Below, piece after piece: positions 3,838-56,717 of a stretch of 58,255 bases of DNA (its first letter is position 1; every line of letters starts with the position of its first letter). Below the pieces are notes generated by a model. That model ran no database searches, was not told the DNA's origin, and was given only the letters and a program-made list of their open reading frames with translations. The position numbers were made by a program, and so were the translations under genes. This stretch comes from an uncultured Sulfurimonas sp. GTDB lineage: Bacteria > Campylobacterota > Campylobacteria > Campylobacterales > Sulfurimonadaceae. The stretch is taken from positions 1-58,255 of the forward strand of contig CAYZUN010000001.1 of NCBI GenBank assembly GCA_964481625.1, given 5' to 3'.

Positions 3838-3991
3838 GCATTCCCTTCTATTGCTAAATAGCCAATAGCACTAATATCGACTATTTACATGTATTTATTA
3901 ATTAATCTTCGTAATTATAAACGTATTTTTACTTTAATACGACTAAAACTTTGAATATAATTTAACGATAGATAGTTATAAAAATCTGTTT

Positions 3992-4756
3992 TTAGAGCTT
4001 TTCAGCTCTATTATAGGCACTTTCAATTGCAGCAATAAACCCTTGGCGTACGGCAGATTTTTCTAATGCACCGTAACCTGCTGCGGTGGTACCGCCCGGG
4101 CTCATGACACCATCTTTAAGCAGAGCAGGGTGAATCTCTTGAATGAGTGTACCAAAGCCATCAAAAAGACCGCGCATAAGTGTCATGGCATCATCACGTT
4201 TAAGTCCTTGTTTCACAGCACCATCAGCAAGTGCTTCAGCAACAAGCGCTAAATATGCCGGACCGCTTCCCGCAAGAGCAGTGGCAATGTCAAGCTCTTT
4301 TTCACTGTTTAACCACAATGTTGTGCCAATGGAGGCAAAAAGCTCTTGAGCCTCTATTTTACATGTAGTTTCACCTGTTAGTGTTGTCATGGATTTTCCG
4401 ACAGTAGCTGCGAGGTTTGGCATGGCTCTGACATAAGATACAGCCTCAATGTTCTGCGTTAACGTTTCAAGTGTTGTTCCAGCTAAAACAGAGTACAGTG
4501 TTTTGGCACGACCTTTTAAGAGTGATTGCATTTCAAGAATATTAGCAGGTTTGACACAAAGAATAATGGTTTTATCGGTGATATCAAAACCATTGATATC
4601 AGCTTTTAGAATTTTTACATATAAATTTTCTTCAAAAGCTTCAAGTTTACCGCTGTTACGTCCCGCTACCTCAATGTCATAACGTTCCTTCAGACTCACT
4701 GCCATTGCCATTGCCATATTGCCATTTCCAATAAATGTGATAGTTTCGCGCATCAT
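3992..4756 (-). CDS. proC: Pyrroline-5-carboxylate reductase
   Basis: 254 aa. N-terminal Rossmann motif FIGNGNMAMAMA; GSGPAYLALVAEALADGAVKQGL and MSPGGTTAAG motifs are typical of ProC. Overlaps fliW by 4 nt. Confidence 0.9.
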   Translation of the reverse strand: MMRETITFIGNGNMAMAMAVSLKERYDIEVAGRNSGKLEAFEENLYVKILKADINGFDITDKTIILCVKPANILEMQSLLKGRAKTLYSVLAGTTLETLTQNIEAVSYVRAMPNLAATVGKSMTTLTGETTCKIEAQELFASIGTTLWLNSEKELDIATALAGSGPAYLALVAEALADGAVKQGLKRDDAMTLMRGLFDGFGTLIQEIHPALLKDGVMSPGGTTAAGYGALEKSAVRQGFIAAIESAYNRAEKL

Positions 4757-5136
4757 TGAGCCTTTAAAAATGTCGAAATAGGTTCGGCAATATCAAGCGA
4801 TGCGTTATCACTAATAATGATTTGTCCCGCTTTCTTACAGCTAGTATTAAAAATTATGGGTGCAATAAAATTGACGACAGAGTTCTCAATAGGTGTTTGG
4901 ATAATAATAATATTGTAAATAAGTATATTACTGGCGTCATTAATTTCTAAGGCACTTTGAACTGATGCGGGAATCTCAAATGAGTACTCACGCAGTGCAA
5001 AAGGGTCAACCAGGGTAAAGGCAATCTTTTTAGAGTCAGGAGACTCAAGATGCATGAAAATATCGTCTATCTTTTCAAGTTTTAACTGCTTGATCTCTTC
5101 AAAACCAAGCAGAGGCTGTGTTACTTCAAATAGCAT
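4753..5136 (-). CDS. fliW: Flagellar assembly factor FliW
   Basis: 127 aa. N-terminus MLFEVTQPLLGFEEIKQLKLEKIDD..F..LES and the FTLVDPFALREYSFEIP pattern match the FliW family. The fliW-proC pairing next to bamD-lon is as I recall for Campylobacter jejuni. Confidence 0.8.
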   Translation of the reverse strand: MLFEVTQPLLGFEEIKQLKLEKIDDIFMHLESPDSKKIAFTLVDPFALREYSFEIPASVQSALEINDASNILIYNIIIIQTPIENSVVNFIAPIIFNTSCKKAGQIIISDNASLDIAEPISTFLKAQ

Positions 5137-5232
5137 AATTAGGCACCTATTGATTGTATTAGATGGGAGTATTATACAATATTTTATTTTCTTTAGCTAA
5201 AATACCATCTATTTTAAATAACGGTGTAAACG

Positions 5233-5943
5233 ATGCTAAAAAATATAATAATTTTTATAACGGCGCTGATGTTATTAACAGGTTGTCAAAAAGAGGAACC
5301 TGAGTATAATAAACCGGCAATTTACTGGTATCAGCAGATGGTTAATGCAGTTTCAAACTCTATGTTGGAAAAAGCAGATAATTTCTACAGTTCGCTTCAA
5401 AGTGAGCATATTGCTTCACCGCTTTTAAAAGAGGCGACACTGATTATGGCACAAGCGCATATGCATAATGAAGAGTATCTTTTAAGTGATCACTTCTTAA
5501 GTGAATACTTAAAGCGTTATGCTACGCAGAGTGAGCATGAGTATATCGAGTATTTACGGATGAGAGCAAAATATATGGCACTGCCAAATGCCTCACGAGA
5601 TCAAGGACTTATTACCAATGCTATTGTCACAGGTGAGAATTATAAACGCAACTATCGGCACTCTCAGTACTACAGTATTGTAGATAGTATGGTTACACGT
5701 CTTTATGTTGCACAGGGGGCATTAAATGAGAATATTGCTAAGCTTTATGATCGATTAGATAAACCTAAAGCAGCAGAGTTTTATCGTAATATTAAACCTG
5801 AATTATGGATTGTATGGGATGAAATTGAACCTGCCTCTGTACCATTTTACCGCAGCGTTTTTGAAGGTGACGGCGATGACAGCTGGTATTCTTTTGTCAT
5901 ACCTGATACCCAAAGTGTTGTCTCACGACGCACTAATAATTAA
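5233..5943 (+). CDS. bamD: Outer membrane protein assembly factor BamD (ComL-like lipoprotein)
   Basis: 236 aa. Lipobox LLTGC at the N-terminus, TPR-like helical repeats, and a position directly upstream of lon as in other Campylobacterota. Confidence 0.65.
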   Translation: MLKNIIIFITALMLLTGCQKEEPEYNKPAIYWYQQMVNAVSNSMLEKADNFYSSLQSEHIASPLLKEATLIMAQAHMHNEEYLLSDHFLSEYLKRYATQSEHEYIEYLRMRAKYMALPNASRDQGLITNAIVTGENYKRNYRHSQYYSIVDSMVTRLYVAQGALNENIAKLYDRLDKPKAAEFYRNIKPELWIVWDEIEPASVPFYRSVFEGDGDDSWYSFVIPDTQSVVSRRTNN

Positions 5944-15823: not shown

Positions 15824-17265
15824 AGTATGATATACTCATTATTGGCGCGGGAGTAGCGGGACTTTATGCCGCTATGAATCTTCCTAAAAATAAAAAAGTT
15901 TTAGTCATTAACAAATCGCACCCTTGGGAGTGTAATACCTATTATGCTCAAGGTGGTGTGACGACGGCGTATAATAAAGAAGATATTAAATTACATGTAA
16001 ATGATACCATAGATGCCGGTGATGGAATGTGTAATAAAGAAGCAGTAGAAGTGATGAGCAAAGGAAGCCTTGCTGTTATAGATGATCTTATTACTCGTGG
16101 TTTTGAGTTTGATAAAGCTGATGATGGAACACTGCTTTACACCAAGGAGGCAGCCCATTCGCGTGATCGTATTTTACATGCCGGAGGTGATGCAACAGGA
16201 AGATACCTGCACTACTTTTTACTGCAGCAAAATCCGCATCCAATGCTCTGTAATGCTACAGTTATTGACCTGATTATGGACGAGGGACAGTGTTGTGGTG
16301 TTGTCATTGAACATGAGAATAAAATTAAGACAATTGAAGCCGCACATACTGTTATTGCCAGTGGCGGTGTAGGTTCGTTGTATGAATACCACACCAATGC
16401 CAGAACCATTAGCGGAGATATTCACGGTATCTGTGTTGAGAAAGGGATTGCCTTAGAAAACATGGAGATGATGCAATTTCATCCAACGGTTTATGTCGGT
16501 AATGAATCAGCACAAAAACAGCTCTTAACTGAAGCTCTACGCGGTGAAGGAGCACATATTGTTGATGAGAACGGCTATCGTTTTTTATATGAGTATGATA
16601 AAAATGCAGAATTGGCATCACGTGATATTGTTAGTTATGCCATTTATGATTATACACAGCGCACCGGAATGCAGGCATATTTAGATTTGAATGTTTTTGA
16701 TGAGAGTTATTTTAGAAAACGGTTTCCTAATATTTATGGTGCACTCAATCTTTTAGGCTTTAAGGTGCCTGCTCAAAAGGTTCCTATTTCGCCGGCATTT
16801 CATTACGCTATAGGAGGGATTAAAACCTCCTTTGATGGAGAAGTAGCTGGAATTAAAGGTCTCTATGCCATTGGTGAGGCAGCATCCACCGGTGTTCACG
16901 GAGCAAATAGGCTAGCGAGCAACTCTCTTCTTGAGGGCTTAGTATTTTCTAAGCGCGCCAGTAAAAAAATTCTTAAAGACAGTACAAGATTTTGTGCGAA
17001 ATTAGTAATGGTGGAAGACTATATTTTGGCAGAATCTCAAGATAAAGTAAAAAAAGATAAATTACGTAGTATAATGTGGAAAAATGTTTCTATTGCCCGC
17101 ACTAAAAAAGGGTTACATGAAGCAAAGAAAGAGATAGAAGCGATGTTAACCAATAAGGTTGGTAGACTTTTGAAGTTGAGACTACTTACAGCACATGCCA
17201 TAGTTGAAGCAGCTTTAAAACGTGATGAATCTATTGGTGTGCACCATATGAAAGAGGAGAATTGA
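15820..17265 (+). CDS. nadB: L-aspartate oxidase
   Basis: 481 aa. FAD-binding DILIIGAGVAGLYAA, plus YAQGG and RxxHAGGD..G motifs of the succinate dehydrogenase/fumarate reductase flavoprotein family. Size and C-terminus fit NadB. Confidence 0.9.
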   Translation: MKYDILIIGAGVAGLYAAMNLPKNKKVLVINKSHPWECNTYYAQGGVTTAYNKEDIKLHVNDTIDAGDGMCNKEAVEVMSKGSLAVIDDLITRGFEFDKADDGTLLYTKEAAHSRDRILHAGGDATGRYLHYFLLQQNPHPMLCNATVIDLIMDEGQCCGVVIEHENKIKTIEAAHTVIASGGVGSLYEYHTNARTISGDIHGICVEKGIALENMEMMQFHPTVYVGNESAQKQLLTEALRGEGAHIVDENGYRFLYEYDKNAELASRDIVSYAIYDYTQRTGMQAYLDLNVFDESYFRKRFPNIYGALNLLGFKVPAQKVPISPAFHYAIGGIKTSFDGEVAGIKGLYAIGEAASTGVHGANRLASNSLLEGLVFSKRASKKILKDSTRFCAKLVMVEDYILAESQDKVKKDKLRSIMWKNVSIARTKKGLHEAKKEIEAMLTNKVGRLLKLRLLTAHAIVEAALKRDESIGVHHMKEEN

Positions 17266-20302: not shown

Positions 20303-20333
20303 AAATTACATGTAAATTTACATGTAATTTCTA
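20300..20333. repeat. Perfect 34-bp palindrome TAGAAATTACATGTAAATTTACATGTAATTTCTA, made of two copies of the abundant TTACATGTAA motif. It includes the guaA stop codon and may act as a terminator or stem-loop.
   Basis: Read directly from the sequence. The two arms are exact reverse complements around 20316/20317. The motif copies are at 20306-20315 and 20318-20327. Confidence 0.9.
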
Positions 20334-32168: not shown

Positions 32169-32184
32169 TCTTCAAGAAGTAAAC

Positions 32185-36299: not shown

Positions 36300-36300
36300 A

Positions 36301-43385: not shown

Positions 43386-44217
43386 ATAGAGCGTTAACCT
43401 GTTGGTGAAAATGCAGCGGATCCACCTGGGTACCGTTTAACATAATAGCATAGTGCAGATGGGGTCCAGTTACACGTCCTGTCATACCGCTAAGTCCTAG
43501 AATATCGCCTTGTTTTACCTTATCGCCCACTTTTACATGTAATTTACTTAAGTGGTAATAACATGAGTAAATTCCCTCTCCATGATCAATGACAACAGAG
43601 TTTCCTGCATAGTAGCGATCTTTTGCAATAGCAACGACACCATCATTGGTAGCATGAAGCGGCGTACCGATTGCCGCTCTATAATCCGTACCGCTATGAT
43701 AGCTTCTTAAGCTGTTGTTGTACATTCGAGCCGTTCCAAATTGACTGGTAATATGCGAGTCCATAGGGTCTATAAAAGGCTGTCGCCAATAGCGTTTTTT
43801 TGTAAAGGTACCATAAGCTCTCATCGCTTCTTTGTATTCACGCGCAGTACGTTCTTTTTGCTTTTTATTGGGTGTGACTTTAGAAGATGCTACAGTAATA
43901 GTTTCGGATTTATAAGTGCCGTTAGTGACATTAATATTAACAGTTTTGTTACCATCGCTATAGGCAATTTTCAGCTCTTTAGCTCCAAGGCTTGAGCGAT
44001 AGTTAACCGGAATAAAAGCAACACTTTTTAAACTGTCGGTCGGGTGTTTTAAAAGAGGAATGTTTTTTTTACCATACTTAAGTGTCGCGTCACTGGGAAT
44101 TTTTAAAAAGGTTATTACTTTAGTGGTGCCTTTAATGACATCATCACCAAACAGTGAGAGTGAAAGTAGTGTTATGAGTGCAATAAAAAATTTCAATAGA
44201 TTCCTTTTTTGGTACAA
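43357..44217 (-). CDS. M23-family (LytM-type) metallopeptidase
   Basis: 286 aa. Signal peptide, HSGTDY and GPHLHY zinc-ligand motifs. Confidence 0.88.
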   Translation of the reverse strand: MYQKRNLLKFFIALITLLSLSLFGDDVIKGTTKVITFLKIPSDATLKYGKKNIPLLKHPTDSLKSVAFIPVNYRSSLGAKELKIAYSDGNKTVNINVTNGTYKSETITVASSKVTPNKKQKERTAREYKEAMRAYGTFTKKRYWRQPFIDPMDSHITSQFGTARMYNNSLRSYHSGTDYRAAIGTPLHATNDGVVAIAKDRYYAGNSVVIDHGEGIYSCYYHLSKLHVKVGDKVKQGDILGLSGMTGRVTGPHLHYAIMLNGTQVDPLHFHQQVNALFKQKGEEKR

Positions 44218-44225: not shown

Positions 44226-45482
44226 ATGGATAAATTAAAAGATATTGTAGCCAAACTTGAAGCAAATCAAAACGTTTTTCTAACCGGTGGTGCAGGAGTG
44301 GGAAAAACAACTTTGACCCGTCAGGCTATTGCACATTTTGAAGCAGAGGGTAAAAAAGTTGCCCGGCTTGCTTCAACGGGAATGGCGGCAACACTTTTAG
44401 ACGGTCAGACCCTGCATAGTTTTTTAGATCTGGGCATTGCTAATAATATTGCTGATTTAGAGTTGCGTAAAAAGCTTCAGATCAAAAAGAAGATTAAAAA
44501 ACTGATTGCTTCCATGAATCTTATTGTGATTGATGAAATTTCCATGGTCAGTGCAGAACTTTTTGAGATGGTTCGGTTGCGACTGCTCCAAGCTGAGTTT
44601 CAGGGCGTACTGTTAGTTGTGGGTGATTTCTTACAACTGCCTCCTGTGGTGAGAGGCTATGGCAGTGTTAATTTTGCATTTGAATCGGATTCATGGCAGC
44701 GGTGTGATTTTGAAACAATAACACTGAGTACCGTCTATCGTACGAGTGATGAAGATTTTATTACTCTGTTAGATGCGGTGCGTTTTGCTCGTATTACAGA
44801 GCAAGATGAACTCTTTTTAAATTCACTTGTTAAGATGTTGCCTCATGATCTTTCAACCGTAACCTTCCTCTTTGGTAAGAATAACAGCGCCTTAGCTCAT
44901 AACAGAAGACTTTTAGAGACACTTGAAGGAGATTTACATGTATTTAAGACTGAAACGATGTTACATGTAAAAACAGTAACGCCCAAAGAGGTAAAGCGTT
45001 ATTTAGAAGATGCACGTGTTCCAGAAGTTTTAGAGCTAAAAATTGGAGTTCCTATTCTCTTTACCAGAAATGCATGGAACTACTTTAATGGTGAACGCGG
45101 ACGGGTTATTAACATTAAAGAGCATATTGTCTATGTTGAGAAAGATGATGGTCAAATTGTTAAACTTGAAAGAGCATCAATGAGCAAAAGCCGATGGGAA
45201 GAGAAGTTAGTTGAGGGTAAAAAAGAGATGATAGAAGTATCGCTTATTACACTCTACCAATACCCCATTGCATTAGCATTTGCCATTACCATTCATAAGT
45301 CTCAAGGAATGAGTTTGAATGATTTAGTTATTGAGAGCAATGAAATTTTTGCACCTTCACAGTTTTATGTAGCAATTTCACGAGCAATTTCACCGCACAG
45401 ACTTACCCTGATAGCACCAAATCGTTCATGGCAACAGTTAAACTTTGTCAATAAAAAAGCAGTTGATTTTGTAAAGAAATAG
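44226..45482 (+). CDS. SF1 helicase of the PIF1/RecD-like family
   Basis: 418 aa. Walker A GGAGVGKTT, motif II VIDEISMV, GDFLQLPPV, and C-terminal AITIHKSQGMS. Confidence 0.8.
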   Translation: MDKLKDIVAKLEANQNVFLTGGAGVGKTTLTRQAIAHFEAEGKKVARLASTGMAATLLDGQTLHSFLDLGIANNIADLELRKKLQIKKKIKKLIASMNLIVIDEISMVSAELFEMVRLRLLQAEFQGVLLVVGDFLQLPPVVRGYGSVNFAFESDSWQRCDFETITLSTVYRTSDEDFITLLDAVRFARITEQDELFLNSLVKMLPHDLSTVTFLFGKNNSALAHNRRLLETLEGDLHVFKTETMLHVKTVTPKEVKRYLEDARVPEVLELKIGVPILFTRNAWNYFNGERGRVINIKEHIVYVEKDDGQIVKLERASMSKSRWEEKLVEGKKEMIEVSLITLYQYPIALAFAITIHKSQGMSLNDLVIESNEIFAPSQFYVAISRAISPHRLTLIAPNRSWQQLNFVNKKAVDFVKK

Positions 45483-46432: not shown

Positions 46433-46580
46433 ATAGTTTTCAGGTTTAAAGAGTTACAATATTCTATGCTTGATAACTATAATAAGTATAAGTTATTATA
46501 TTGTCGCATTGAGTCGAGTCATTTTGAGTGAGGGGGTTTACTTGAAATCGGCTCCAAGTTTTAATTTAGGAGAAGAGAAA

Positions 46581-49175
46581 ATGAATCATAGTTTAAATAA
46601 ACTTTCAACTTTAGTTCTTGGTTCTGCAATCGCTGCGACAACAGCGTTTAGCGCAGGTACTTTAGAGAAGGTAATGAAGGAACGTGGCTTAACTGAGACT
46701 GATGTCATTCGTGCTGCTAAAACTTACATGCCTACCGGTGGTCGTGACGAGTATGTAGTATTTAGTTCGGGCGGACAATCAGGTCAAGTAATCGTTTACG
46801 GTGTTCCGTCAATGAGAATTTTGAAATATATTGCCGTATTTACACCAGAGCCGTGGCAAGGTTACGGTTATGATGTAGATAGTCTTGCAGTCTTACGCCA
46901 AGGTAACATTCGCGGACGTGAAATTAACTGGGGAGATACGCATCACCCGGCACTTTCAGAAGTAGACGGAAAATATGATGGTAAATGGCTTATTATTAAT
47001 GATAAAGCCAATCCACGTCTTGGAGTAATTGACTTGCACGATTTTGAGACAAAACAGATTGTTGTCAATCCAGTTTTTAAATCAGCGCACGGTGGCGCTT
47101 TCTTTACTCAAAACAGTGACTATATTATAGAAGCTGCGCAATATGCAGCACCGTTTGATAACAATTATCATCCGATTGAAGACTATAAAGAGAGTTACCG
47201 TGGTGGAGTGACCATGTGGAAATTTGATTCTAAAATAGGTCGGATTATTGAAGATGAAACGTTTACAATTGAGATGCCTCCTTACATGCAGGATTTGAGT
47301 GATGCGGGTAAAGCTGTTTCTGATGGTTGGGGATTCACTAACTCATTTAACACCGAGATGTACACGGGTGGTATTGAAGTAGGTATGCCGCCAAATGAAG
47401 CGGGTATGTCCCGTAACGATACTGACTTTTTACATGTATATAACTGGAAAAAGTTAGCTGAAGTGGCTAAGAATAAGAAAAATGTAAAAATCATTAATGG
47501 TCACAAGGTCATTCCGATGGACGTTGCTATTAAAAATGATGCACTTTTCTTAATTCCAGAGCCAAAATCGCCACACGGCGTTGATGTCTCTCCAGATGGT
47601 GAGTACATTACCGTTTGTGGTAAGTTAGATACGCATGCTTCTGTTTTTAGTTTCTCAAAAATTATGAAACTGATTAAAGCTAAAGAATATGTGGGCAGAG
47701 ATCCTTACGGGATTCCTATCTTAGATATGAAAAAATCACTTCATGGACAGGTTGAACTAGGTCTGGGGCCATTGCATAATCAATATTCGCCAGTTGACGG
47801 TGAAATCTATACATCACTGTATGTTGATTCACAAGTTGTTAAATGGAACTACAAAACTTTAAAAGTAATTGATAAAGTAAATGTTCACTATAACATCGGT
47901 CACCTTTGTGGTATGGAAGGTAAGTCAGCAGATCCTCAGGGTGATTACATCATTGCACTTAATAAACTCTCAATCGATCGTTTCCAACCTGTTGGTCCGC
48001 TTCACCCGCAAAATCATCAGTTAATTGATATTCGTGGTAAAAAAATGGACTTATTGGTAGATATGCCGCTTCCATTGGGTGAACCTCACCAAGCCGTAGC
48101 AATTCGCGCTAGTAAACTACATCCACATGTACGTTACAAAATTGGTACCAACTCTAGAACGGGTAAAATCCATGAAGGTAAAACGCTTGCGGGTCAAGAG
48201 CGTATTGAGCGTAATGGAAACAAAGTAGTTGTATATGCTACTATGGTTCGTTCACACATTAACCCTGAACGTATTACGGTAAATAAAGGTGATGAAGTCA
48301 CAATTTACCTGACAAATCTTGAACGTGCTCAAGATGAGACTCACGGTTTTACAGTTGACCATTATGATGTACATGCATCATTAGAACCGGGTGAAACAAC
48401 TACAATTAGATTTATTGCAGACATTGAAGGGGTTTTCCCTTATTACTGCACTGAATTTTGTTCAGCACTTCACTTAGAGATGATGGGTTACTTAATGGTT
48501 AAAGATCCTAACAAAAAATATGTTAGTGCTCAAAAACTTAAAATGAAAACAATGACACCTGAGCAGTTAAAAGCTGAGTATGACAAAACGGTTGCTGTCA
48601 ATGATGCTACAGATGCAGTTATTCAAAGTGTTGTTAAATTCTTAAAAGAGAATAATTTTGATAAGTATCCGATAGTTGCAGACCTGGTAACGGATGCATT
48701 TGATCAATACGGTAAAATTCCTGCACAGAAAAAACTATCAGATAAAGCAGTAAAATCCGGAGATATGGAAAAAGCGATTCTTTTTGAAAATATGATTTGG
48801 CAACTTATGGTTAAGACCGCAGATGTTGGTATTCGTGCAAAAGATACACTGGTGTCTAAAATTGCTACACCAAAAGGTGCAGCAGCAGAGCGTGGAGCAC
48901 TTGCCTTTGATGAAGGTGGTTGTTCTGGTTGTCATGTGGTTGGTAAAGTAAGTTCAGGACCTGATTTAACTGGTGTACTGCAGCGCCACGAAAATGCGGA
49001 AAAATGGGTAAAAGATTTCATTATGAAACCTGAGGCAATGTATGATGACCCTTATGTTAAATCTATGATTGAGTACTTCAACTTAAAAATGCCAAATCAA
49101 GGTATGAGCGAAGCGGAGACATTGGATATGATTGAATATTTCAAATGGATCGACGAAAACGCAAACCTTTTCTAG
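46581..49175 (+). CDS. nosZ: Clade II nitrous oxide reductase with C-terminal monohaem cytochrome c domain (cNosZ), Sec-type signal peptide
   Basis: 864 aa from the ATG at 46581 (RBS AGGAGAAG 5 nt upstream; the ORF-track start at 46470 adds an implausible leader). CuA motif CTEFCSALHLEMMGY, seven-bladed propeller His-rich region, C-terminal CSGCH haem site. No twin-arginine motif in the signal peptide. Confidence 0.95.
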   Translation: MNHSLNKLSTLVLGSAIAATTAFSAGTLEKVMKERGLTETDVIRAAKTYMPTGGRDEYVVFSSGGQSGQVIVYGVPSMRILKYIAVFTPEPWQGYGYDVDSLAVLRQGNIRGREINWGDTHHPALSEVDGKYDGKWLIINDKANPRLGVIDLHDFETKQIVVNPVFKSAHGGAFFTQNSDYIIEAAQYAAPFDNNYHPIEDYKESYRGGVTMWKFDSKIGRIIEDETFTIEMPPYMQDLSDAGKAVSDGWGFTNSFNTEMYTGGIEVGMPPNEAGMSRNDTDFLHVYNWKKLAEVAKNKKNVKIINGHKVIPMDVAIKNDALFLIPEPKSPHGVDVSPDGEYITVCGKLDTHASVFSFSKIMKLIKAKEYVGRDPYGIPILDMKKSLHGQVELGLGPLHNQYSPVDGEIYTSLYVDSQVVKWNYKTLKVIDKVNVHYNIGHLCGMEGKSADPQGDYIIALNKLSIDRFQPVGPLHPQNHQLIDIRGKKMDLLVDMPLPLGEPHQAVAIRASKLHPHVRYKIGTNSRTGKIHEGKTLAGQERIERNGNKVVVYATMVRSHINPERITVNKGDEVTIYLTNLERAQDETHGFTVDHYDVHASLEPGETTTIRFIADIEGVFPYYCTEFCSALHLEMMGYLMVKDPNKKYVSAQKLKMKTMTPEQLKAEYDKTVAVNDATDAVIQSVVKFLKENNFDKYPIVADLVTDAFDQYGKIPAQKKLSDKAVKSGDMEKAILFENMIWQLMVKTADVGIRAKDTLVSKIATPKGAAAERGALAFDEGGCSGCHVVGKVSSGPDLTGVLQRHENAEKWVKDFIMKPEAMYDDPYVKSMIEYFNLKMPNQGMSEAETLDMIEYFKWIDENANLF

Positions 49176-49188
49176 GCACTTTCATTTC

Positions 49189-49215
49189 AAACACAAGAGC
49201 GTTTCTCTTGTGTTT
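49189..49215 (+). terminator. Stem-loop after nosZ (AAACACAAGAG-CGUUU-CUCUUGUGUUU) followed by U; likely a partial terminator or attenuator
   Basis: 11-bp perfect stem (49189-49199 / 49205-49215), read by hand. The U-rich 3' arm runs into UUUUG. Confidence 0.5.
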
Positions 49216-49331
49216 TGATATCAATCAATTTATTAGTTACTAAAGTAAGTTATACTTCTTTGTATCATAAAATTTATTTATGAAATAGTTAAGTACATTT
49301 TATATGTAAAGTTTATTGAAGAGGAGATACT

Positions 49332-50114
49332 ATGCATCCAAGTTTTCTAAAGTCAAAAATATTCGCAAGTGTTGCATTGATTATTTTATCAGTGGCGTTT
49401 ATATTTCCTATGGTTGTATTTCATGGGACACTCAATAAAGTTCATGAAGATAGAATTGATGAGATTTCACCCTTTACTGCAAAGGTATGGAATATGTACT
49501 CACAGGGACGTTACATTAGTACGACAACCCCTCAAGCAGCTCATAATAATCTGATGCAGATGATTGAACACTCTGCAGAACTTGGTGTGGCCTCGTTGCC
49601 GCTTTGGGCGGTATCACTCGAAGCGCCTAACTATCCAAAAGAGGCGTTTCCCGAAGGAATTCCGGTGTTTTTTCACTTTGATGGTTATAGTGGTGAAGTT
49701 CATGAGATGAATACAATCAATCACTACGTGGGAATGGATCCGATGTGGGTTGGTGGTACCTTTGAGCGTGAAATTGCTATTTATGCTCTACTGCTTTTGA
49801 GTTTAGGTATGATCTATTTCATAGCCTTCAATCAAAAAATATGGAGTTATGTAATGCTAGTACCGGCAGCACTGCCGGTACTATTTATAGCAGATTATTC
49901 CTATTGGCTCTACTGGTTTGGTCATAATCTTCATGATTGGGGTGCATTTAAAATTAAACCTTTTATGCCGACAGTTTTTGGTGATGGAAAGATTGCACAG
50001 TTTACAACACACTCGTACCCGACTATTGGATTTTACTTACTGCTAGTTATTGCTCTGTTTTCACTTTTAGCAATTTTAGCGCGAAGTAAGGCAATTAAAG
50101 AGTCCGGGGAGTAG
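49332..50114 (+). CDS. nosB: NosB membrane protein (clade II nos clusters)
   Basis: 260 aa, multi-TM. Located directly after nosZ as in the Wolinella succinogenes cluster. Called from position and topology only. Confidence 0.7.
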   Translation: MHPSFLKSKIFASVALIILSVAFIFPMVVFHGTLNKVHEDRIDEISPFTAKVWNMYSQGRYISTTTPQAAHNNLMQMIEHSAELGVASLPLWAVSLEAPNYPKEAFPEGIPVFFHFDGYSGEVHEMNTINHYVGMDPMWVGGTFEREIAIYALLLLSLGMIYFIAFNQKIWSYVMLVPAALPVLFIADYSYWLYWFGHNLHDWGAFKIKPFMPTVFGDGKIAQFTTHSYPTIGFYLLLVIALFSLLAILARSKAIKESGE

Positions 50115-50123
50115 GTACGACAG

Positions 50124-51341
50124 ATGATTATTAGAGCCTTTCTTACCTTTTTAATTTTACATGTAATTTTAGAAGCTTCAGTGCTACAAGATGCTATTGA
50201 TAGTGCTGATGAAGGCTCAATTATTCGTCTTAAAGCAGGGATCTATAAGGGCTCAATAAATATTACTAAACCCATTACTATACTTGGCACTGAAAAAGGT
50301 GTCATTATTGACGGTGAGGGTAACGGAACTATTGTTACCATTAAAAGCTCTTACGTTACACTCAAAAATCTTACATTGAGAAATAGTGGTTCTCGTCATG
50401 ATAAACTCGATGCTGCCATTTTAATGTTAGAAGCTAAGCAGTGTGAAGTGAGTGACTGCATCATTGAAGATGCTCTTTTTGGTATTGATATGCAGATGGT
50501 GAATAATTCCATAATTGCAAATAATACGATCTCATCAAAAGATTATGACCTTGGACTTCGAGGTGATGGTCTGCGTCTATGGTATAGCAACGATAATATT
50601 ATTCGAAAAAATTCACTTATTAAATCGCGTGATATGGTTGTTTGGTATTCACACGGTAATTTGATTGAAGAGAATTTCGGTGAGTATTGTCGTTATTCAC
50701 TGCATTTTATGTATGCCGGTAAGAATTATGTCAAAAATAATACCTTTCAGTTTAATTCGGTAGGTATCTTCTTTATGTACTCAAAAGATACTATTGCAAC
50801 AGGCAATGTTATTAAAAGCTCATTAGGTGCTACAGGTATGGGTATTGGACTTAAAGATGTTTCAAATTTTACACTAAAGAACAATACGGTACTTTACAAT
50901 GCCCAAGGCATATACATTGACCGTTCACCTTTTGAGCCTGATACGAATAATTTTATTCATAATAATAAAATACTCTATAATGCAGAAGCCTTGCATTTTC
51001 ATTCACTTAGTGAAAACAATATAATAAAAGACAATACTATTCTAGGTAATATTGAAGATATTGTTAACGATTCTCGTGGAAGTAAAACCTATAAGAATGA
51101 GTTTGTGGGTAACTACTGGGATAGTTATGAGGGATTTGATAGAGATGGTGACAATATTGGCGATACACCGCATAAAGTATTTCAATATGCTGATAAACTC
51201 TGGCTGTACAATCCGGAGGTAAAGTTTTTTTACGGATCACCGGTGATTTCACTGCTAAACTTTTTAGCAAAACTGGCTCCATTTTCAGAGCCGGTATTTT
51301 TGCTTGAAGATAAAAAGCCTAGATTGAAAGAAGAGGTATAG
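50124..51341 (+). CDS. nosD: NosD periplasmic beta-helix copper-maturation protein
   Basis: 405 aa. N-terminus LQDAIDSADEGSIIRLKAGIYKGSINITKPITILG and repeated parallel beta-helix (N-x-I) repeats. Confidence 0.88.
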   Translation: MIIRAFLTFLILHVILEASVLQDAIDSADEGSIIRLKAGIYKGSINITKPITILGTEKGVIIDGEGNGTIVTIKSSYVTLKNLTLRNSGSRHDKLDAAILMLEAKQCEVSDCIIEDALFGIDMQMVNNSIIANNTISSKDYDLGLRGDGLRLWYSNDNIIRKNSLIKSRDMVVWYSHGNLIEENFGEYCRYSLHFMYAGKNYVKNNTFQFNSVGIFFMYSKDTIATGNVIKSSLGATGMGIGLKDVSNFTLKNNTVLYNAQGIYIDRSPFEPDTNNFIHNNKILYNAEALHFHSLSENNIIKDNTILGNIEDIVNDSRGSKTYKNEFVGNYWDSYEGFDRDGDNIGDTPHKVFQYADKLWLYNPEVKFFYGSPVISLLNFLAKLAPFSEPVFLLEDKKPRLKEEV

Positions 51342-51343
51342 TC

Positions 51344-52087
51344 ATGAGTGAAACAATAAAAAAAGAGCGACGACAGTTTATTCAATGGACAACACTAGGT
51401 GCCTTAGCTGTCTTTATGGGTGTTGGTATTGTTGGAGCACCTTATTTAAATGGAGTAGAAACGCGTCTTAGACCTCCTGGAGCTCCGGGTGAAAAAGAAT
51501 TTTTAGCACTGTGTATTAAATGCGGGCAGTGTCTGCAAGTGTGTCCCTATCACTCCATTAAATTAGCAGACATTGGTAAAGGTTATGGTATTGGAACACC
51601 GTATATTGATGCAAGAGAACGTGGCTGTTACGCGTGTGAAGCAGTTCCGTGCGTACTTGCGTGTCCAAGTGGTGCTTTAGATCATGCTACGGAAAAAGCT
51701 ATTGATATTAAGATGGGTATTGCTGTATTAGAGTTTGCTAATACATGTATTGCTATGAAAAATGAGCCGGTACCTAAGGGACACTCAATCAGAATGCATG
51801 AATTTATTGATAGTCAGATTAACGTAACACAGCTGGAGCGTGATGTATTAGAAAAATTTGATGCATTTGAAGGCAAGCAATGTACATTATGTGCGGATAT
51901 GTGCCCAATGCCAAATCCGCTTAGTGCCATTGCTATGGTGCCTGATGCTAATGGTGGAAAACGTCCAGAAATTTATGATGGTTGTACGGGCTGTGGAGTT
52001 TGTGAAGAGGTCTGCCCAGTGAGCCAACCCTCTATTGTAGTAAAAAAAAATTTAACCTATGAAGAGTATTATGAAAAAGGAGTGTGA
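51344..52087 (+). CDS. nosG: NosG, NapG-like periplasmic polyferredoxin (Tat signal)
   Basis: 247 aa. Twin-arginine ERRQFIQW. Four Cys clusters: CIKCGQCLQVCP, CYACEAVPCVLACP, CTLCADMCP, CTGCGVCEEVCP. Confidence 0.88.
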   Translation: MSETIKKERRQFIQWTTLGALAVFMGVGIVGAPYLNGVETRLRPPGAPGEKEFLALCIKCGQCLQVCPYHSIKLADIGKGYGIGTPYIDARERGCYACEAVPCVLACPSGALDHATEKAIDIKMGIAVLEFANTCIAMKNEPVPKGHSIRMHEFIDSQINVTQLERDVLEKFDAFEGKQCTLCADMCPMPNPLSAIAMVPDANGGKRPEIYDGCTGCGVCEEVCPVSQPSIVVKKNLTYEEYYEKGV

Positions 52088-52644
52088 CTATGAGATTAGC
52101 AACAGTAAGTTTAGCAGCGGTATTATTATTGGCGGGATGTTCTGAAACAAAAGAAAAATCTGAAGGTGCTTCAAGTGAAGTGGCTGGAGGTATTGAAATT
52201 GTTAAAAATGAGGATGCTTTTAAAGATAAGGTAGAAGTCAAAAAAAGTGATGATAAAAGTAATCAAAAATATTATTACGATTACAATAATGACAAAAGTG
52301 TCAATAAAGATAAAACCTATACGAAAATGGATGCTAACTTAAGAGTGAGAAGCCCTTACGAACAAGTTGAAATAGAGTTGTTGGTCAATAAACTCAGTAA
52401 AAAGTTTATTGTTAAATGTTCTGCATGTCATAACGATTATGCCAACGGTATTATTGGACCATCACTTTTAGACAAAGATGCAACATTTATTGCAGGAACT
52501 ATTGCTAAATATAAAACAGGTGAGAAAGAAAATGTTTTAATGACGGCATTAGTGAAGCAGATGAGTGATGAAGAGATTCAAACGTTGGCCAATGAGATTG
52601 CAACATTTAATAAAGAGATAGCAGCGCTAAGAGGAAGAAAATAG
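52084..52644 (+). CDS. nosC1: NosC1 monohaem cytochrome c lipoprotein
   Basis: 186 aa. Lipobox LLAGC and haem motif CSACH. Confidence 0.8.
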   Translation: MTMRLATVSLAAVLLLAGCSETKEKSEGASSEVAGGIEIVKNEDAFKDKVEVKKSDDKSNQKYYYDYNNDKSVNKDKTYTKMDANLRVRSPYEQVEIELLVNKLSKKFIVKCSACHNDYANGIIGPSLLDKDATFIAGTIAKYKTGEKENVLMTALVKQMSDEEIQTLANEIATFNKEIAALRGRK

Positions 52645-53123
52645 TGAAAAATATTATTGTAGCACTATTAACCGTAATTATTATTGGATTGATGGCATAC
52701 ACTGCCTCCCAAGGTGGTGCATATCATGGCGGTGAAGCAGGTAAAGTTATTGAAGATATGGGAAGTAAAATGGCAGCTGCAACTATGGATGCCCCTAAAG
52801 CAAAAGATGACAGAAAAATTGAGGAAGATAAACTCAAAGCACTTCGCGACAAAGCGGGTAATATTGGTAGGTTTAAAGTCTCTCAAAGCTATAAAATAAA
52901 ATGTGCATCGTGTCACGGTATGAATGGCGAGGGAATTATTGGTCCAAAACTGATTGGTCTTGAATCTGATGCAGTGTATCAAATGTTACTAGATTATAAA
53001 TCGGGACGTAAAGAGAACCTTGTTATGAAAGGTCTGCTCATTAAACTTAGTGAAGAAGATTTACGTGAGTATGCAGATGAGATTGGTGAGTTTGAACAAA
53101 GAGCAGCAGCACTACAAGAATAG
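52644..53123 (+). CDS. nosC2: NosC2 monohaem cytochrome c
   Basis: 159 aa. N-terminal anchor and haem motif CASCH. The C-terminal half is paralogous to NosC1 (..NGEGIIGPKL.. vs ..ANGIIGPSL..). Confidence 0.8.
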   Translation: MKNIIVALLTVIIIGLMAYTASQGGAYHGGEAGKVIEDMGSKMAAATMDAPKAKDDRKIEEDKLKALRDKAGNIGRFKVSQSYKIKCASCHGMNGEGIIGPKLIGLESDAVYQMLLDYKSGRKENLVMKGLLIKLSEEDLREYADEIGEFEQRAAALQE

Positions 53124-53135
53124 TCGGAGTGAGTC

Positions 53136-54041
53136 ATGGATAAGTATAACAGCAGAGCGACGATTAAGAATACGACCTTTTTATCTACATTTACGGATAA
53201 AACAAGAGAAGGTAAAACAAAGCTAAGCTATAGAACTAAGCGATGGGTTATGGTTATTGCAATGCACCTGCTATTTTTTCTTTCGTTTAATATTGATATT
53301 CAGATACTTGAAGGAACGTTAACCGGATCACGTTTTTTAGGCTTTCACCTTATTGATATTTTTGCAACGATGCAGCTTTTTTTAGCAACACATCAGCTTC
53401 CGGTCAACATGATTATTGGAACGGTTACGATTATTGTGGTCTACATTATTATTGGCGGACGAACCTATTGTGCCTGGGTCTGCCCTTACGGGCTTTTGAG
53501 TGAGATTGGTGAGAAAATACATAACACTTTAGTAGATAAAAAGATTATTAAAGAGCATGAGTTCGACCATAGAGTCCGTTATGTTTTTTGGGGAATTTTC
53601 TTAGTCTTAGCATTTACAAGCGGTTATTTGGTATTTGAGATTTTTAATGTTGTTGGAATACTAAGTCGGTTTATTGCTTATGGCTGGAGTGTGGCGCTGA
53701 CATGGGTTTTTGCTGTTTTAGTTGTAGAAATCTTTTTCTCAAGACGTGCATGGTGCCGTTATGTCTGTCCATTGGGAACTACCTATGGGTTAATGGGGCC
53801 ACTTAGTGCAACACGTATTGAGTGGAATGACAATTGTGATCACTGTATGGTCTGTCATGATGTCTGTTTTGAAAATCAGGTATTAGAACTGACCAAAGCA
53901 AAATATGATAAAGAGCGTGAGGAGCAGGGTATTAAAACACAATTTGTTACCGGTGCGGATTGTACTTTATGTGGACGCTGTATTGATGTCTGTCATGAAG
54001 ATGCACTCAATTTTGAATTTAGACTAAAGTCGTTGGTATGA
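53136..54041 (+). CDS. nosH: NosH, NapH-like membrane-bound iron-sulfur quinol dehydrogenase subunit
   Basis: 301 aa. 4 TM with CAWVCPYG and CRYVCPLG motifs, then two ferredoxin motifs CDHCMVCHDVC and CTLCGRCIDVC. Confidence 0.88.
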   Translation: MDKYNSRATIKNTTFLSTFTDKTREGKTKLSYRTKRWVMVIAMHLLFFLSFNIDIQILEGTLTGSRFLGFHLIDIFATMQLFLATHQLPVNMIIGTVTIIVVYIIIGGRTYCAWVCPYGLLSEIGEKIHNTLVDKKIIKEHEFDHRVRYVFWGIFLVLAFTSGYLVFEIFNVVGILSRFIAYGWSVALTWVFAVLVVEIFFSRRAWCRYVCPLGTTYGLMGPLSATRIEWNDNCDHCMVCHDVCFENQVLELTKAKYDKEREEQGIKTQFVTGADCTLCGRCIDVCHEDALNFEFRLKSLV

Positions 54042-54676
54042 TTGAAGTTACTAATTTAACGAAAAAATTTGGTAAAACCATCTCGCTGAACAATGTTTCC
54101 ATCAATTTTAATAAAAATGATGCCATAGCACTTATGGGTGCTAATGGTGCGGGAAAAACAACACTGATTCGTCTGATTTTAGGTTATTACCATCCTAACA
54201 GTGGTCAAGTGCGTATTAATGGGCTTGACCCTATTAAAGATCGAATAGATATTTTAAAGCATGTCAGTTTTGTACCGCAGCTTCCGCCTCCAATAAAACT
54301 TAGTTTAAATGAACTTATTTCGTACATTTGTAAAAGCTCAGGAGTTGATCAAAACCTGATTTATCACTATGCCAATGAAATGAAGCTTGACATAAACCCC
54401 AATCTTAATAAATCATTTTTTAAGCTCTCAGGTGGAATGAAACAGAAGCTTCTTATTGCTATCTCATTGGCAAAACAGAGTGATATAATAATCTATGATG
54501 AGCCCACAGCCAATCTTGACCCCAAAGCTAGAAATGACTTTTACCGACTTTTAAAAGAAAATGAAAAAGACAAGCTGGCACTTTTTGTGACGCACCGAAT
54601 TGAAGAGGTTAAAGAGATTGTCAATCGTCAAGTCTATATGGACTTAGGAGAAGTGGTATCTGATGAAATATTTTAA
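54038..54676 (+). CDS. nosF: NosF ABC transporter ATPase
   Basis: 212 aa. Walker A GANGAGKTT, signature LSGGMKQK, Walker B IIIYDEP. Confidence 0.88.
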   Translation: MIEVTNLTKKFGKTISLNNVSINFNKNDAIALMGANGAGKTTLIRLILGYYHPNSGQVRINGLDPIKDRIDILKHVSFVPQLPPPIKLSLNELISYICKSSGVDQNLIYHYANEMKLDINPNLNKSFFKLSGGMKQKLLIAISLAKQSDIIIYDEPTANLDPKARNDFYRLLKENEKDKLALFVTHRIEEVKEIVNRQVYMDLGEVVSDEIF

Positions 54677-55130
54677 GCAGATTTTTTTAACTATTGGTGT
54701 ACTGTTGAGTTTTAGTGCTTGTGAACGTGAAGTCTCAACAGAGCTTAAAAAAGTACACTGGGATCGTGACATGTGTGAACGTTGCAAGATGGTGGTGAGT
54801 GATAGGACTCATGCCGTTCAAGTCATTAATATGAAAACAGGGCGCAGTTACATGTTTGATGATATTGGCTGTACGATTTTATGGTTTGATGATGAGAAGA
54901 TTGAATGGGCACCGCAAGCTAAAATCTGGATTACCGATGTTGTTACGGGTAAGTGGACTGATGCACGAACCGCTCTGTATGATACCAACAATATCACACC
55001 GATGGCGTATGGCTTTGCTGCACATGAGAATAACAGTACGATTAAAGTGGGTGAAGAAATTCTTGATTTCACAGAAATTACGCGACGTATTTTTGAAATT
55101 GAAGAAAAGAAAAATAGGAAAGCATATTGA
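54663..55130 (+). CDS. nosL: NosL copper-chaperone lipoprotein
   Basis: 155 aa. Lipobox FSAC. CERCKMVV (C-x-x-C-x-M), FDDIGC and PMAYGFAAH motifs of the NosL family. Confidence 0.8.
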   Translation: MKYFKQIFLTIGVLLSFSACEREVSTELKKVHWDRDMCERCKMVVSDRTHAVQVINMKTGRSYMFDDIGCTILWFDDEKIEWAPQAKIWITDVVTGKWTDARTALYDTNNITPMAYGFAAHENNSTIKVGEEILDFTEITRRIFEIEEKKNRKAY

Positions 55131-55954
55131 AAAATTTACTTTTAATAGCATATCTTGACCTAAAAGAGTCAATTCGAGCAAATTGGTTTATTGTTTATTC
55201 TCTAGTATTTGGCGGGTTAATTGCACTCTTTTTTATTGCAGGAATTACCGAATCTCAAGTGATGGGCTTTAGTGGCTTGAGTAGATTGTTGCTTATGTAT
55301 ATTCAAGTTACCGTTATTATTTTGCCGATATTTATTCTCATCACTACGGTACGTTCCATTTCAGGTGATCGTGACAGTCATATTTTAGAGTATATGCTCT
55401 CGTTTCCAATTTCATTGAAACAGTATTATTGGGGTAAGGTTTTTGGACGATTTATTACAGTATTTTTACCTGTATTTATGGCTATGTTCTTTGCAATAAT
55501 TTACGGTGTCTTTAAAGATGCTTCTGTACCTTGGGATATTTTCTTTCTCTACACCGGTCTACTGTTTTCGATGAGTTCAGCATTTTTAGGGATTGCTTTT
55601 TTTATCTCTTCAATTGTGAAATCATCAGAAATGGCATTGGGAATCTCATTTTTTGTATGGATTTTTTTACTTGCCTTTATTGATATTGCGCTAATCAGTC
55701 TGATGCTTCAAAATAGAATGAGTGAAGAGCTAATCATTAGTATCGCACTGCTTAATCCGATGGAAGTATTTAGAGTTGCAGCTATCAGTCTGTTTGACCC
55801 GGAACTCACCGTAATGGGACCCGTAGCATTTTACATACTCGATCTGTTTTCTCAAGGTATGTTTATTTTCCTTTCAATACTCTACCCCATAATAATTGGC
55901 GTAGTGTTTGCATACTTTGGTTATGCTATATTTAGTAAGAAAGATTTAGTTTAA
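55127..55954 (+). CDS. nosY: NosY ABC-2 type permease
   Basis: 275 aa, 6 TM. Overlaps the upstream gene by 4 nt. The position and topology are those of NosY. Confidence 0.82.
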   Translation: MKNLLLIAYLDLKESIRANWFIVYSLVFGGLIALFFIAGITESQVMGFSGLSRLLLMYIQVTVIILPIFILITTVRSISGDRDSHILEYMLSFPISLKQYYWGKVFGRFITVFLPVFMAMFFAIIYGVFKDASVPWDIFFLYTGLLFSMSSAFLGIAFFISSIVKSSEMALGISFFVWIFLLAFIDIALISLMLQNRMSEELIISIALLNPMEVFRVAAISLFDPELTVMGPVAFYILDLFSQGMFIFLSILYPIIIGVVFAYFGYAIFSKKDLV

Positions 55955-55959
55955 GGACA

Positions 55960-56433
55960 ATGATGAAAAAAATACTACTATTGAGCGTGTTTATACTCTC
56001 ACTGCTTCATGCACAAAATATTAAAGTTGACAAAGATGCATTATGTTTAATCCGCAAGGTTAAAGTCTACAAAGAGCCGCGATGGGTTGCAAAAGTAGTA
56101 ACAATTCAAGATAAATCGGTCTATTTAAGTAGTCCAAAATCGATGTTTGAGTATATATTTACAGCATCTCGCTGGCCGGAACTCGGCGCACTGAATATTG
56201 ATGATATGAAAAGTATTCAAGTAACTGACTTTAAAACACTTGATGCTATTGATGCAAAAACTGCCTATTATGTCTATGGAAGCAATCAAACCTCACCTGG
56301 CGGTGATGACTTAGTTCCTTTTGCAACTAAAGCCGAGGCCGAGGCCTATATGAAGAGCAATAACGGAAAACGAATATTACGTTTTTCTGAGATTAAAATT
56401 AGTCTTATTAATCTTATTAATGGTCGTATTTAA
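55960..56433 (+). CDS. Second NosL-family protein (lacks the C-x-x-C-x-M motif)
   Basis: 157 aa. Signal peptide. SPKSMFEY..., YYVYGSNQTSPGGDDLVPFATKAEAEAYMKSNNGKRILRFSEI resembles the NosL C-terminal half. Confidence 0.6.
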   Translation: MMKKILLLSVFILSLLHAQNIKVDKDALCLIRKVKVYKEPRWVAKVVTIQDKSVYLSSPKSMFEYIFTASRWPELGALNIDDMKSIQVTDFKTLDAIDAKTAYYVYGSNQTSPGGDDLVPFATKAEAEAYMKSNNGKRILRFSEIKISLINLINGRI

Positions 56434-56717
56434 TGAAATTATTTACATGTATTTTATTGCTTAGTGTTACGGTATTTGCGGCATCAGTCAATAAAAAAGC
56501 CGTTGCTTGTGAACTTCAAGACAACGTTGAGAGAGCTTATTTTTTATGGGAAAATAATGGAAGCAAGGGCTTCATTAAATTTATGACACGTAATCAGTGT
56601 GAGCTTTTACATCAAGATGCAAAAGTCGAAATTATAGCAAAAGGGGGTGATTACTATAAAGTGACACCTATTAACTTAAGAGAGTTATGGATACGCAAAG
56701 AAGTGATTACAAAATAG
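56433..56717 (+). CDS. Small secreted protein of unknown function, translationally coupled to the nos cluster
   Basis: 94 aa. Signal peptide MKLFTCILLLSVTVFAAS and two mature-region Cys. Its start overlaps the previous stop (TAATG). Confidence 0.5.
   Translation: MKLFTCILLLSVTVFAASVNKKAVACELQDNVERAYFLWENNGSKGFIKFMTRNQCELLHQDAKVEIIAKGGDYYKVTPINLRELWIRKEVITK

Follow-up and report, generated by a model that had tools for sequence, protein, structure and literature searches.

The role of HIP1, the highly iterated palindrome of cyanobacteria, has been an open question for 30 years, and data pointing to methylation-dependent DNA uptake are only recent. HIP1 (GCGATCGC) and the alternate HIPs have a palindromic octamer core that can be extended symmetrically. 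HIP1 occurs at 300–2700 copies per Mb (PMC4390886), and genomes count as HIP1-rich above an observed/expected ratio (O/E) of 16 (PMC5861425). Synechococcus is transformed as much as 100-fold better when HIP1 is methylated (bioRxiv 10.1101/2024.09.10.611283), and HIP1 abundance co-varies with DNA-uptake genes (bioRxiv 10.64898/2026.06.24.733823). In the phylum Campylobacterota, according to PMC10046745, which cites Beauchamp et al. 2017, Campylobacter jejuni imports only DNA with the CtsM-methylated palindrome RAm6ATTY. Here we analyze a 58,255-base stretch of DNA from an uncultured Sulfurimonas sp. (GenBank assembly GCA_964481625.1, contig CAYZUN010000001.1, positions 1–58,255; hereafter the window), in which the palindrome TTACATGTAA, with its core TACATGTA, recurs in gene after gene. 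This word is almost certainly a genome-wide signal at the DNA level, of the class formed by HIP1 and by the DNA uptake sequences (DUS) of Neisseria: it is dispersed and hyper-abundant, overrides protein sequence, is kept across species and is limited to certain lineages.

The core occurs 24 times in the window, at 0.41 per kb, whereas 100 dinucleotide-preserving shuffles average 1.43 copies and never exceed 5, and counted on both strands it is the most frequent 8-mer. The full 10-mer occurs 14 times, with 0.20 copies expected. Markov models of orders 0–4 predict 0.7–2.2 copies of TACATGTA and 0.09–0.38 of TTACATGTAA; the O/E of the core is 17 in the window and that of the 10-mer about 70, and the excess over the window and the Sulfurospirillum loci described below ranges from 17- to 200-fold. 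These models and the shuffles served as nulls in place of the maximal-order Markov test, which gives no flag for TACATGTA in its z-scores and tells nothing here, since nearly every occurrence of the 6- and 7-mer sub-words belongs to a motif copy. The hexamer ACATGT is present 32 times (20.6 expected) and has T...A flanks in 24 of them. A first-pass annotation of this DNA had given the same counts for the hexamer and the 10-mer and had located the signal in the extended palindrome rather than in the hexamer, which our recount bears out; 23 of the 24 starts it listed are exact, and the last copy begins at 56444 instead of 56454. A motif-free gap of 11.8 kb, at 22.2–34.0 kb, is not significant (P = 0.11).

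Most copies lie inside genes: 21 of 24 (88%) fall in 17 different open reading frames (ORFs), in three frame contexts and at relative positions of 0.03–1.0 along the gene body. Fourteen of these are read as (L/I)-H-V, six as T-C-x, and one supplies the stop codon of uvrC (IYM*), in agreement with the first-pass description of 21 copies in unrelated genes, read in the L-H-V or T-C frames, with the third frame used solely for the uvrC stop. That annotation had also proposed codon-shuffled controls. Shuffling synonymous codons within genes leaves 4.3 ± 1.8 copies (maximum 10) and permuting codon order leaves 1.2 (maximum 5), compared with 21 observed in coding sequences (CDS). Because both values fall far below 21, codon choice and amino-acid sequence are both bent to the word. 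LHV is the most over-represented tripeptide in the window's proteins (13 vs 2.4 expected), and all 13 occurrences are spelled TTACATGTA, one of 48 possible spellings. The excess is explained neither by composition, nor by codon usage, nor by a peptide motif.

The individual copies are listed below. Remarks on orthologues refer to 80 syntenic loci from Sulfurimonas-related genomes, retrieved with a UvrC scan for the orthologue comparison, of which L001, L002 and L053 are individual members.

3886–3893: motif copy between the ORF of a large Ig-domain protein (1–3837, minus strand) and proC (3992–4756, minus strand)
4360–4367: motif copy in proC (minus strand), read T-T-C-K; different residues stand here in the orthologues from L001 and L053
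8054–8061: motif copy in lon (plus strand), read D-L-H-V-H; common to L001 and L002
13820–13829: 10-mer giving the uvrC stop codon (..IYM*); common to L001 and L002
14989–14998: 10-mer in uvrC, read D-L-H-V-K; L002 differs by one base (TACATGTC)
15991–16000: 10-mer in a nadB-like FAD oxidoreductase gene (plus strand), read K-L-H-V-N; common to L001
20301–20330: perfect 30-nt palindrome made of two 10-mers (20306–20315 and 20318–20327), directly after the guaA stop codon and before hemD
20744–20751: motif copy in hemD (plus strand), read K-T-T-C-N; relatives have E-T/S-x-C-S/N without the word
22231–22238: motif copy in purD (plus strand), read D-L-H-V-E; E-I-K-V-E in 23 of 36 relatives
34009–34018: 10-mer in a ModE-like regulator gene (plus strand), read F-T-C-K
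36355–36364: 10-mer in a modC-like ABC ATPase gene (plus strand), read D-L-H-V-N
37142–37149: motif copy at the 3' end of the modC-like ABC ATPase gene, read N-I-H-V-I
38961–38970: 10-mer in an MR_MLE enolase-superfamily gene (minus strand), read I-L-H-V-K
39228–39237: 10-mer in the same MR_MLE gene (minus strand), read L-L-H-V-I
40034–40043: 10-mer in a DUF819 membrane protein gene (minus strand), read D-L-H-V-N
41285–41294: 10-mer in an ExoX-like exonuclease gene (plus strand), read F-T-C-K
43533–43542: 10-mer in an M23 peptidase gene (minus strand), read K-L-H-V-K
44935–44942: motif copy in a PIF1/RecD-like helicase gene (plus strand), read D-L-H-V-F
44961–44970: 10-mer in the PIF1/RecD-like helicase gene, 27 nt downstream of the 44935 copy, read M-L-H-V-K
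47431–47438: motif copy in nosZ (plus strand), read F-L-H-V-Y
50157–50166: 10-mer close to the 5' end of nosD (plus strand), read I-L-H-V-I
51742–51749: motif copy in an Fe-S protein gene of the nos cluster (plus strand), read N-T-C-I
56444–56451: motif copy close to the 5' end of a 94-aa ORF (plus strand), read F-T-C-I

The word is not a peculiarity of this contig. Our statements on lineages rest on samples of ~20 kb per genome. Only three of the 80 UvrC loci are rich in it, namely L001 (6 copies in 14 kb), L002 (3 in 10.7 kb) and L053 (6 in 21.8 kb), and the remaining 77 Sulfurimonas loci (1.2 Mb) hold 13 copies, with 23 expected. A tree of UvrC groups L001 and L002 with the window and puts L053 in a different clade. 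The RecQ of L053 is 71% identical to that of Sulfurimonas sp. HSL3-2/Hydrocurvibacter, and we rejected an import of the motif-rich 5' part of L053 from Sulfurospirillum, its RecQ being native to Sulfurimonadaceae. Sulfurimonas sp. HSL3-2 itself is a cultured organism with a complete genome, and a 21.8-kb locus from it, not picked for the motif, contains 8 copies.

When metagenomes were scanned for paired 10-mers, many contigs emerged on which copies are dense and dispersed; we placed these contigs in Sulfurospirillaceae on the basis of a GlnRS 87% identical to that of S. arsenophilum, a CcsBA 54% identical to that of Sulfurospirillum and further local protein matches. We therefore turned to loci fetched with glnS or ccsBA from complete genomes of cultured species, a selection that is independent of the motif. 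Sulfurospirillum halorespirans (CP017111) has 11 copies in 22 kb, S. barnesii (CP003333) 11 in 22 kb and S. deleyianum (CP001816) 9 in 23 kb. Pooled over 68 kb, the three loci hold 31 copies of TACATGTA (1.09 expected, O/E 29; 0.46 per kb), 29 of TTACATGTAA (0.14 expected), 13 of TTTACATGTAAA (0.024 expected) and 5 of CTTTACATGTAAAG (0.001 expected). Controls fetched in the same manner are poor, with a single copy each in 12 kb of Sulfurovum and 22 kb of Sulfurimonas and 3 copies in 23 kb of a deep Sulfurospirillaceae relative. The stretch of locus L271 that encodes ribosomal proteins, EF-Tu and RpoB has no copies, which fits the expectation that the word is kept out where protein and codon constraint is strong. 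The rich loci not selected for the motif, together with the poor controls, show that the word is the property of whole lineages and not of the window, and that it is patchy within Campylobacterota. An excess confined to the window by chance, which the first-pass annotation had named as one of two outcomes that would undo its proposal, is contradicted by the Sulfurospirillum and Hydrocurvibacter-like loci. The carriers are the Sulfurimonas-related clade of the window, the Hydrocurvibacter-like clade, and the genus Sulfurospirillum with its relatives, and no other lineage that we sampled.

Weaker sequence preferences, also of dyad form, extend beyond the word, out to 14 bp. Among the 24 window copies, T is found at –1 in 21 and at –2 in 17, position –3 is A or T in all 24, and the 3' side mirrors this pattern, so that copies extend to about W-T-T-TACATGTA-A-W-T, with a consensus of roughly ATTTACATGTAAAT. 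Likeness among window copies ends ~3 bp outside the core, and since the flanks beyond ~14 bp are unrelated, the copies are not parts of a longer repeat. In Sulfurospirillum the word extends to the 14-bp dyad cTTTACATGTAAAg, with T at ±5 in 60 of 62 half-sites, T at ±6 and C at ±7; these preferences are not derived from codons, because intergenic copies show them too. The element that is recognized is a dyad of up to 14 bp, and it has dialects, w-T-T in the window clade and c-t-T in Sulfurospirillum, with A/T vs C/G at ±7. Sulfurospirillum also places 12 of 31 copies (39%) outside CDS, compared with 5.8% intergenic DNA (P = 8e-8); the corresponding figures in the window, 3 of 24 copies vs ~6% intergenic DNA, are not significant on their own. 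The 30-nt palindrome between guaA and hemD is predicted to form an RNA hairpin of –17.1 kcal/mol (z = –6.1). In Sulfurospirillum, several intergenic copies centre longer palindromes; those at L266 6408–6431 and L263 9834–9855 are perfect over 22–24 bp, for example TCTACCTTTACATGTAAAGGTAGA, which suggests use as hairpins or terminators, or selection for longer dyads.

Orthologue comparison indicates how copies arise and how they are kept. At the uvrC site at 14989, the 78 most distant of the 80 relatives have residues of the type K-L-K/Q/E-E-K where the window has D-L-H-V-K. Examples of such changes are uvrC KLKEK to DLHVK, purD EIKVE to DLHVE and hemD ETSCN to KTTCN; at the lon site at 8054 most other relatives have DLHIH without the word. 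As relatives have other residues at window sites, the copies were made by non-synonymous substitution at variable protein positions, which answers the orthologue comparison that the first-pass annotation had suggested. The copies in lon, nadB and the uvrC stop are common to the nearest relatives, L001/L002, and others differ by at least one base, so sites turn over. In twelve genome pairs with 74–80% nucleotide identity (among the window, L001 and L002, and among S. halorespirans, S. barnesii and a Sulfurospirillum metagenome contig), 57–100% of alignable copies are intact in the partner genome, compared with 11–20% for all 8-mers (per-pair P from 1e-5 to 0.04). Where orthologous sites were lost or gained, no single transition dominates the base differences. 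Selection on HIP1 had been argued from this kind of conservation test, with the same outcome (PMC5861425). In glnS, one copy of TACATGTA (L263, L264 and L270, position 11245) occupies the same codon in S. halorespirans and S. barnesii, and also in a Sulfurimonas that is poor in the motif; a minority of copies thus coincide through protein constraint and are not products of drive. Near-identical strains have no single-nucleotide polymorphism (SNP) inside any copy, and their SNPs are too few to be of use. Two such matches were seen: window positions 17232–39400 and 46730–58255 differ from L081/L082 (GCA_054028195.1, JBPNWG010000015.1, a contig that begins ~3.9 kb inside the window) by 15 and 11 single bases, and positions 54383–58255 are identical over 3.9 kb to L083 (GCA_006243085.1, VAPK010011314.1), so near-identical strains have been assembled at least twice.

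Among described systems the HIP class is closest. The likeness to HIP1 raised in the first-pass annotation, which also considered a DNA-uptake or protein-binding signal, extends to excess, dispersal and orthologous conservation. At ~410–460 copies per Mb in the sampled loci, TACATGTA lies within the density range of HIP1, and its O/E of 17 in the window and 29 in Sulfurospirillum exceeds the HIP1-rich threshold. As with HIP1, copies are mostly intragenic in several frames, are conserved above controls and are missing from lineages that sit amid word-bearing ones. The word is nevertheless not HIP1 proper, since sequence and phylum both differ: it is AT-rich with a CATG centre, whereas HIP1 is GC-rich with a GATC/CGATCG centre, and its hosts are Campylobacterota. 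Also unlike HIP1, it comes with no cognate methyltransferase in the examined ~20-kb loci, is strongly enriched between genes in Sulfurospirillum, and has one-off variants that are not enriched. The DUS of Neisseria and the uptake signal sequences (USS) of Pasteurellaceae share with TTACATGTAA a word of 10–12 bp at ~0.5 per kb, a placement at tolerant protein positions, intergenic enrichment, inverted pairs that form hairpins after genes (20301–20330 in the window), flank dialects and genus-wide sharing. They differ from it in being asymmetric where TTACATGTAA is a perfect palindrome with un-enriched near-matches.

Two further systems resemble the word in part. The CtsM-methylated RAATTY signal of C. 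jejuni is likewise a palindrome of Campylobacterota with an A/T-rich core that marks self DNA for import (PMC10046745). An orphan methyltransferase with methylation-dependent uptake, as in the CtsM system, offers a ready mechanistic template, although RAATTY, unlike TTACATGTAA, is a degenerate hexamer that is common by composition. We know of no report of RAATTY being hyper-abundant or reshaping proteins. Noc- and ParB-binding sites (the Noc-binding site ATTTCCCGGGAAAT, and parS; 14–16 bp) resemble the word in the 14-bp dyad, the A/T-rich arms (ATTTACATGTAAAT) and the many intragenic copies, and differ from it in numbering ~10–100 per genome and leaving no proteome-wide imprint; no ParB/Noc-like reader was identified among the examined loci. 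Three other classes were rejected: skewed octamers of the Chi, AIMS or KOPS type, because a palindrome cannot carry strand bias (definition in PMC5861425); extragenic palindromes of the repetitive extragenic palindrome (REP) or miniature inverted-repeat transposable element (MITE) type, which are imperfect, intergenic, 20–40 bp or longer and alike over their full length, because window copies are mostly intragenic (88%) and resemble one another no farther than ~3 bp beyond the core; and transcription-factor or phage operator sites, which are few and clustered, because window copies are spread through gene bodies.

The 10-mer has a separate life in viruses. On viral contigs with GC contents of 28–48% (L115 7577–11553, L130 603–2841, L114/L123 and L100 358–538) it centres longer palindromes with flanks of their own, for example ATCTTACATGTAAGAT seven times in L115, clustered in stretches that resemble control regions. 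A phage regulator probably uses these clusters as operators or promoters, so that DNA-binding proteins reading TTACATGTAA exist. We considered and rejected the viral contigs with 10-mer pairs as instances of the same phenomenon, their palindromes being clustered, operator-like and differently flanked. A 34.8-kb 'viral' contig with 35% GC (IMGVR_UViG_3300026382_000037) has six dispersed copies in 14.5 kb, a host-like density; it may belong, as phage or prophage, to a Campylobacterota lineage rich in the motif. A soil/sediment metagenome contig (L151 2369–2904) carries 14 units of a 38-bp tandem repeat, 97% identical, with TTACATGTAA in each; this satellite-like array appears unrelated to the dispersed word.

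Taken as a whole, the word is made and kept, in some lineages only, by a sequence-specific force that acts at the DNA level despite a cost at the protein level. The mechanism that we rank first, at somewhat short of an even chance, is a self-DNA tag for uptake or recombination. It is ranked first because of the length and form of the dyad, the intergenic enrichment, the hairpin pairs, the dialects, the genus-wide sharing and two precedents, and a reach of the flanks over 14 bp, which exceeds a typical Type II methyltransferase site, also counts for an uptake-like reading. The reader would be a dyad-symmetric, presumably dimeric, sequence-specific protein of a pathway of DNA uptake and recombination, for which the word would be the mark of self, read possibly in dependence on methylation of the central CATG. 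Fragments carrying the word would be taken up or recombined preferentially, and molecular drive and selection would fix new copies where the protein tolerates L-H-V or T-C, most easily between genes. In its most specific form, which we put forward more tentatively still, TTACATGTAA would be a palindromic uptake and self-recognition sequence of free-living Campylobacterota, read by the competence machinery, probably after CATG methylation, with a specificity determinant gained or lost several times and core Sulfurimonas and Sulfurovum without the word.

Several observations weigh against a self-DNA tag. Classical DUS and USS are not palindromic, and genomes with USS or DUS hold many near-matches, unlike the situation here, where one-off variants of the 8-mer are not enriched (44 observed vs 58 expected) and count against simple uptake-drive models. 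Density is uneven, with 1 copy in the 9.3 kb past the window's right end and copies bunched together in L053 and L271. A search among the window genes for a methyltransferase, restriction, Vsr, nuclease or competence gene found none, and nothing in the window or the examined loci tied a receptor, methyltransferase or nuclease to the word. A DNA methyltransferase motif screen of all examined loci gave only false positives and one Type IIG enzyme, and none with a palindromic target. The latter is encoded by an Eco57I/MmeI-like restriction-modification gene on a motif-rich metagenome contig (L198 1282–4257) with three copies of the word within the gene, and it is an unlikely reader because its target would be asymmetric. 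A search of the open-access literature found no paper linking Sulfurospirillum to uptake sequences and no uptake or transformation data for these organisms. Conservation and drive are predicted equally by architectural proteins and by repair.

The alternative that survives best, though unlikely, is a word driven by a methyltransferase and repair, as in Elhai's model for HIP. An orphan methyltransferase would mark CATG or the ACATGT core, methylation-directed mismatch repair or very-short-patch repair would convert near-matches and protect existing copies, and the abundance would be a by-product of biased repair or serve strand discrimination. A palindrome with a CATG core is the form that methyltransferases read, and every cyanobacterial HIP variant has a cognate methyltransferase (PMC4390886). 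The patchy phylogenetic distribution suits a mobile methyltransferase gene. Most one-off variants of TACATGTA stand at 0.45–0.9 of expectation, depleted if anything, as conversion to the full word predicts, but the deamination product TATATGTA is not depleted (9 observed vs 7.9 expected) and thus gives no signature of very-short-patch repair, and the base changes at lost and gained sites without a dominant transition likewise speak against the model. So do flank preferences out to 12–14 bp, present even between genes and reaching past known Type II methyltransferase specificities, and the lack of a methyltransferase or Vsr gene in the examined loci, which are ~20-kb samples and not whole genomes.

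Also unlikely, and placed next, is a site for a dimeric chromosome-organizing or nucleoid-associated protein that follows the logic of Noc/ParB, SlmA or SeqA, with many high-affinity sites selected for nucleoid structure, segregation or replication control. A 14-bp dyad with graded flanks is typical of a dimeric DNA-binding protein, the core consists entirely of pyrimidine-purine steps between A/T tracts and is very bendable as judged from its sequence, sites are strongly conserved, and unrelated phages centre clustered 16-bp operator-like palindromes on the same 10-mer. The number of sites fits less well: known systems have tens to ~100 per genome, while the word, at 0.4–0.5 per kb, would have ~800–1,400, roughly tenfold more than in any known system of this sort. 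Such systems are not known to force proteome-wide amino-acid changes, and no candidate protein was found in the examined loci.

We consider quite improbable a Chi-like recombination hotspot, an over-represented self marker read in double-strand-break repair by AddAB, the enzyme that Campylobacterota use. Chi sites are lineage-specific over-represented 5- to 8-mers, and the HIP1 transformation study suggests a Chi-like contribution (bioRxiv 10.1101/2024.09.10.611283), but Chi is non-palindromic, strand-biased (PMC5861425) and usually over-represented only few-fold, while here the palindromy is perfect, preferences reach 14 bp and the excess is 17- to 200-fold. Finally, the absence of any function, with the word as a by-product of composition, codon usage, a common peptide motif or remnants of small mobile elements, is effectively refuted by the shuffles and the motif-poor sister lineages: the AT-richness of the genome, the acceptability of TTA, CAT and GTA as codons and a few protein-constrained copies such as that in glnS speak for it, but composition and codon nulls all fall short by 5- to 70-fold, the word is lacking in relatives whose composition is the same, copies occur in three frame contexts and in spacers, and the flanks outside 14 bp are unrelated, hence no longer repeat.

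The surroundings of the copies are unexceptional. The window is 94% coding, with ordinary housekeeping genes, and includes proC, fliW, a bamD-like gene, lon, two-component genes, uvrC, a nadB-like gene, guaA, hemD, purD, pnp and modABC, as well as an ExoX-like exonuclease gene, a PIF1/RecD-like helicase gene, ahpC, the nos cluster and argB. The nos cluster (46470–56433) is a complete-looking nitrous-oxide reductase cluster, with nosZ carrying a cytochrome c domain, nosD, Fe-S protein genes, an ABC transporter and nosL, and contains four copies of the word. Within the motif-free stretch, a block on the minus strand (30330–33477) encodes a 279-aa protein without a Pfam hit, a GGACT-domain protein and an AAA_14/DUF4143 ATPase, and is possibly recently acquired DNA.

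A full-text search for TACATGTA and TTACATGTAA in the open-access literature returned solely eukaryotic promoter motifs and primers, an earlier description elsewhere being possible, and no bacterial paper with the word, in line with the first-pass statement that it was not known from Campylobacterota. The word is thus a HIP/DUS-class element in a new phylum, with no earlier description found in the searchable open-access literature. As a second hyper-abundant palindrome, of unrelated sequence and in another phylum, it provides an independent test of the idea that HIPs act in uptake. Its carriers include cultured organisms with complete genomes (S. halorespirans, S. barnesii, S. deleyianum and Sulfurimonas sp. 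HSL3-2), and rich and poor sister lineages stand side by side, so that phylogenetic profiling could pinpoint the gene for the reader or writer. For metagenomic contigs the word also makes a sharp marker in binning and taxonomy, and its inclusion in donor DNA, methylated if needed, could ease the transformation of organohalide-respiring and sulfur-oxidizing bacteria. If TTACATGTAA is indeed a palindromic uptake signal, a DUS-type system would for the first time be known beyond Neisseriaceae and Pasteurellaceae, and the view of HIP elements as uptake signals would gain a second, independent case.

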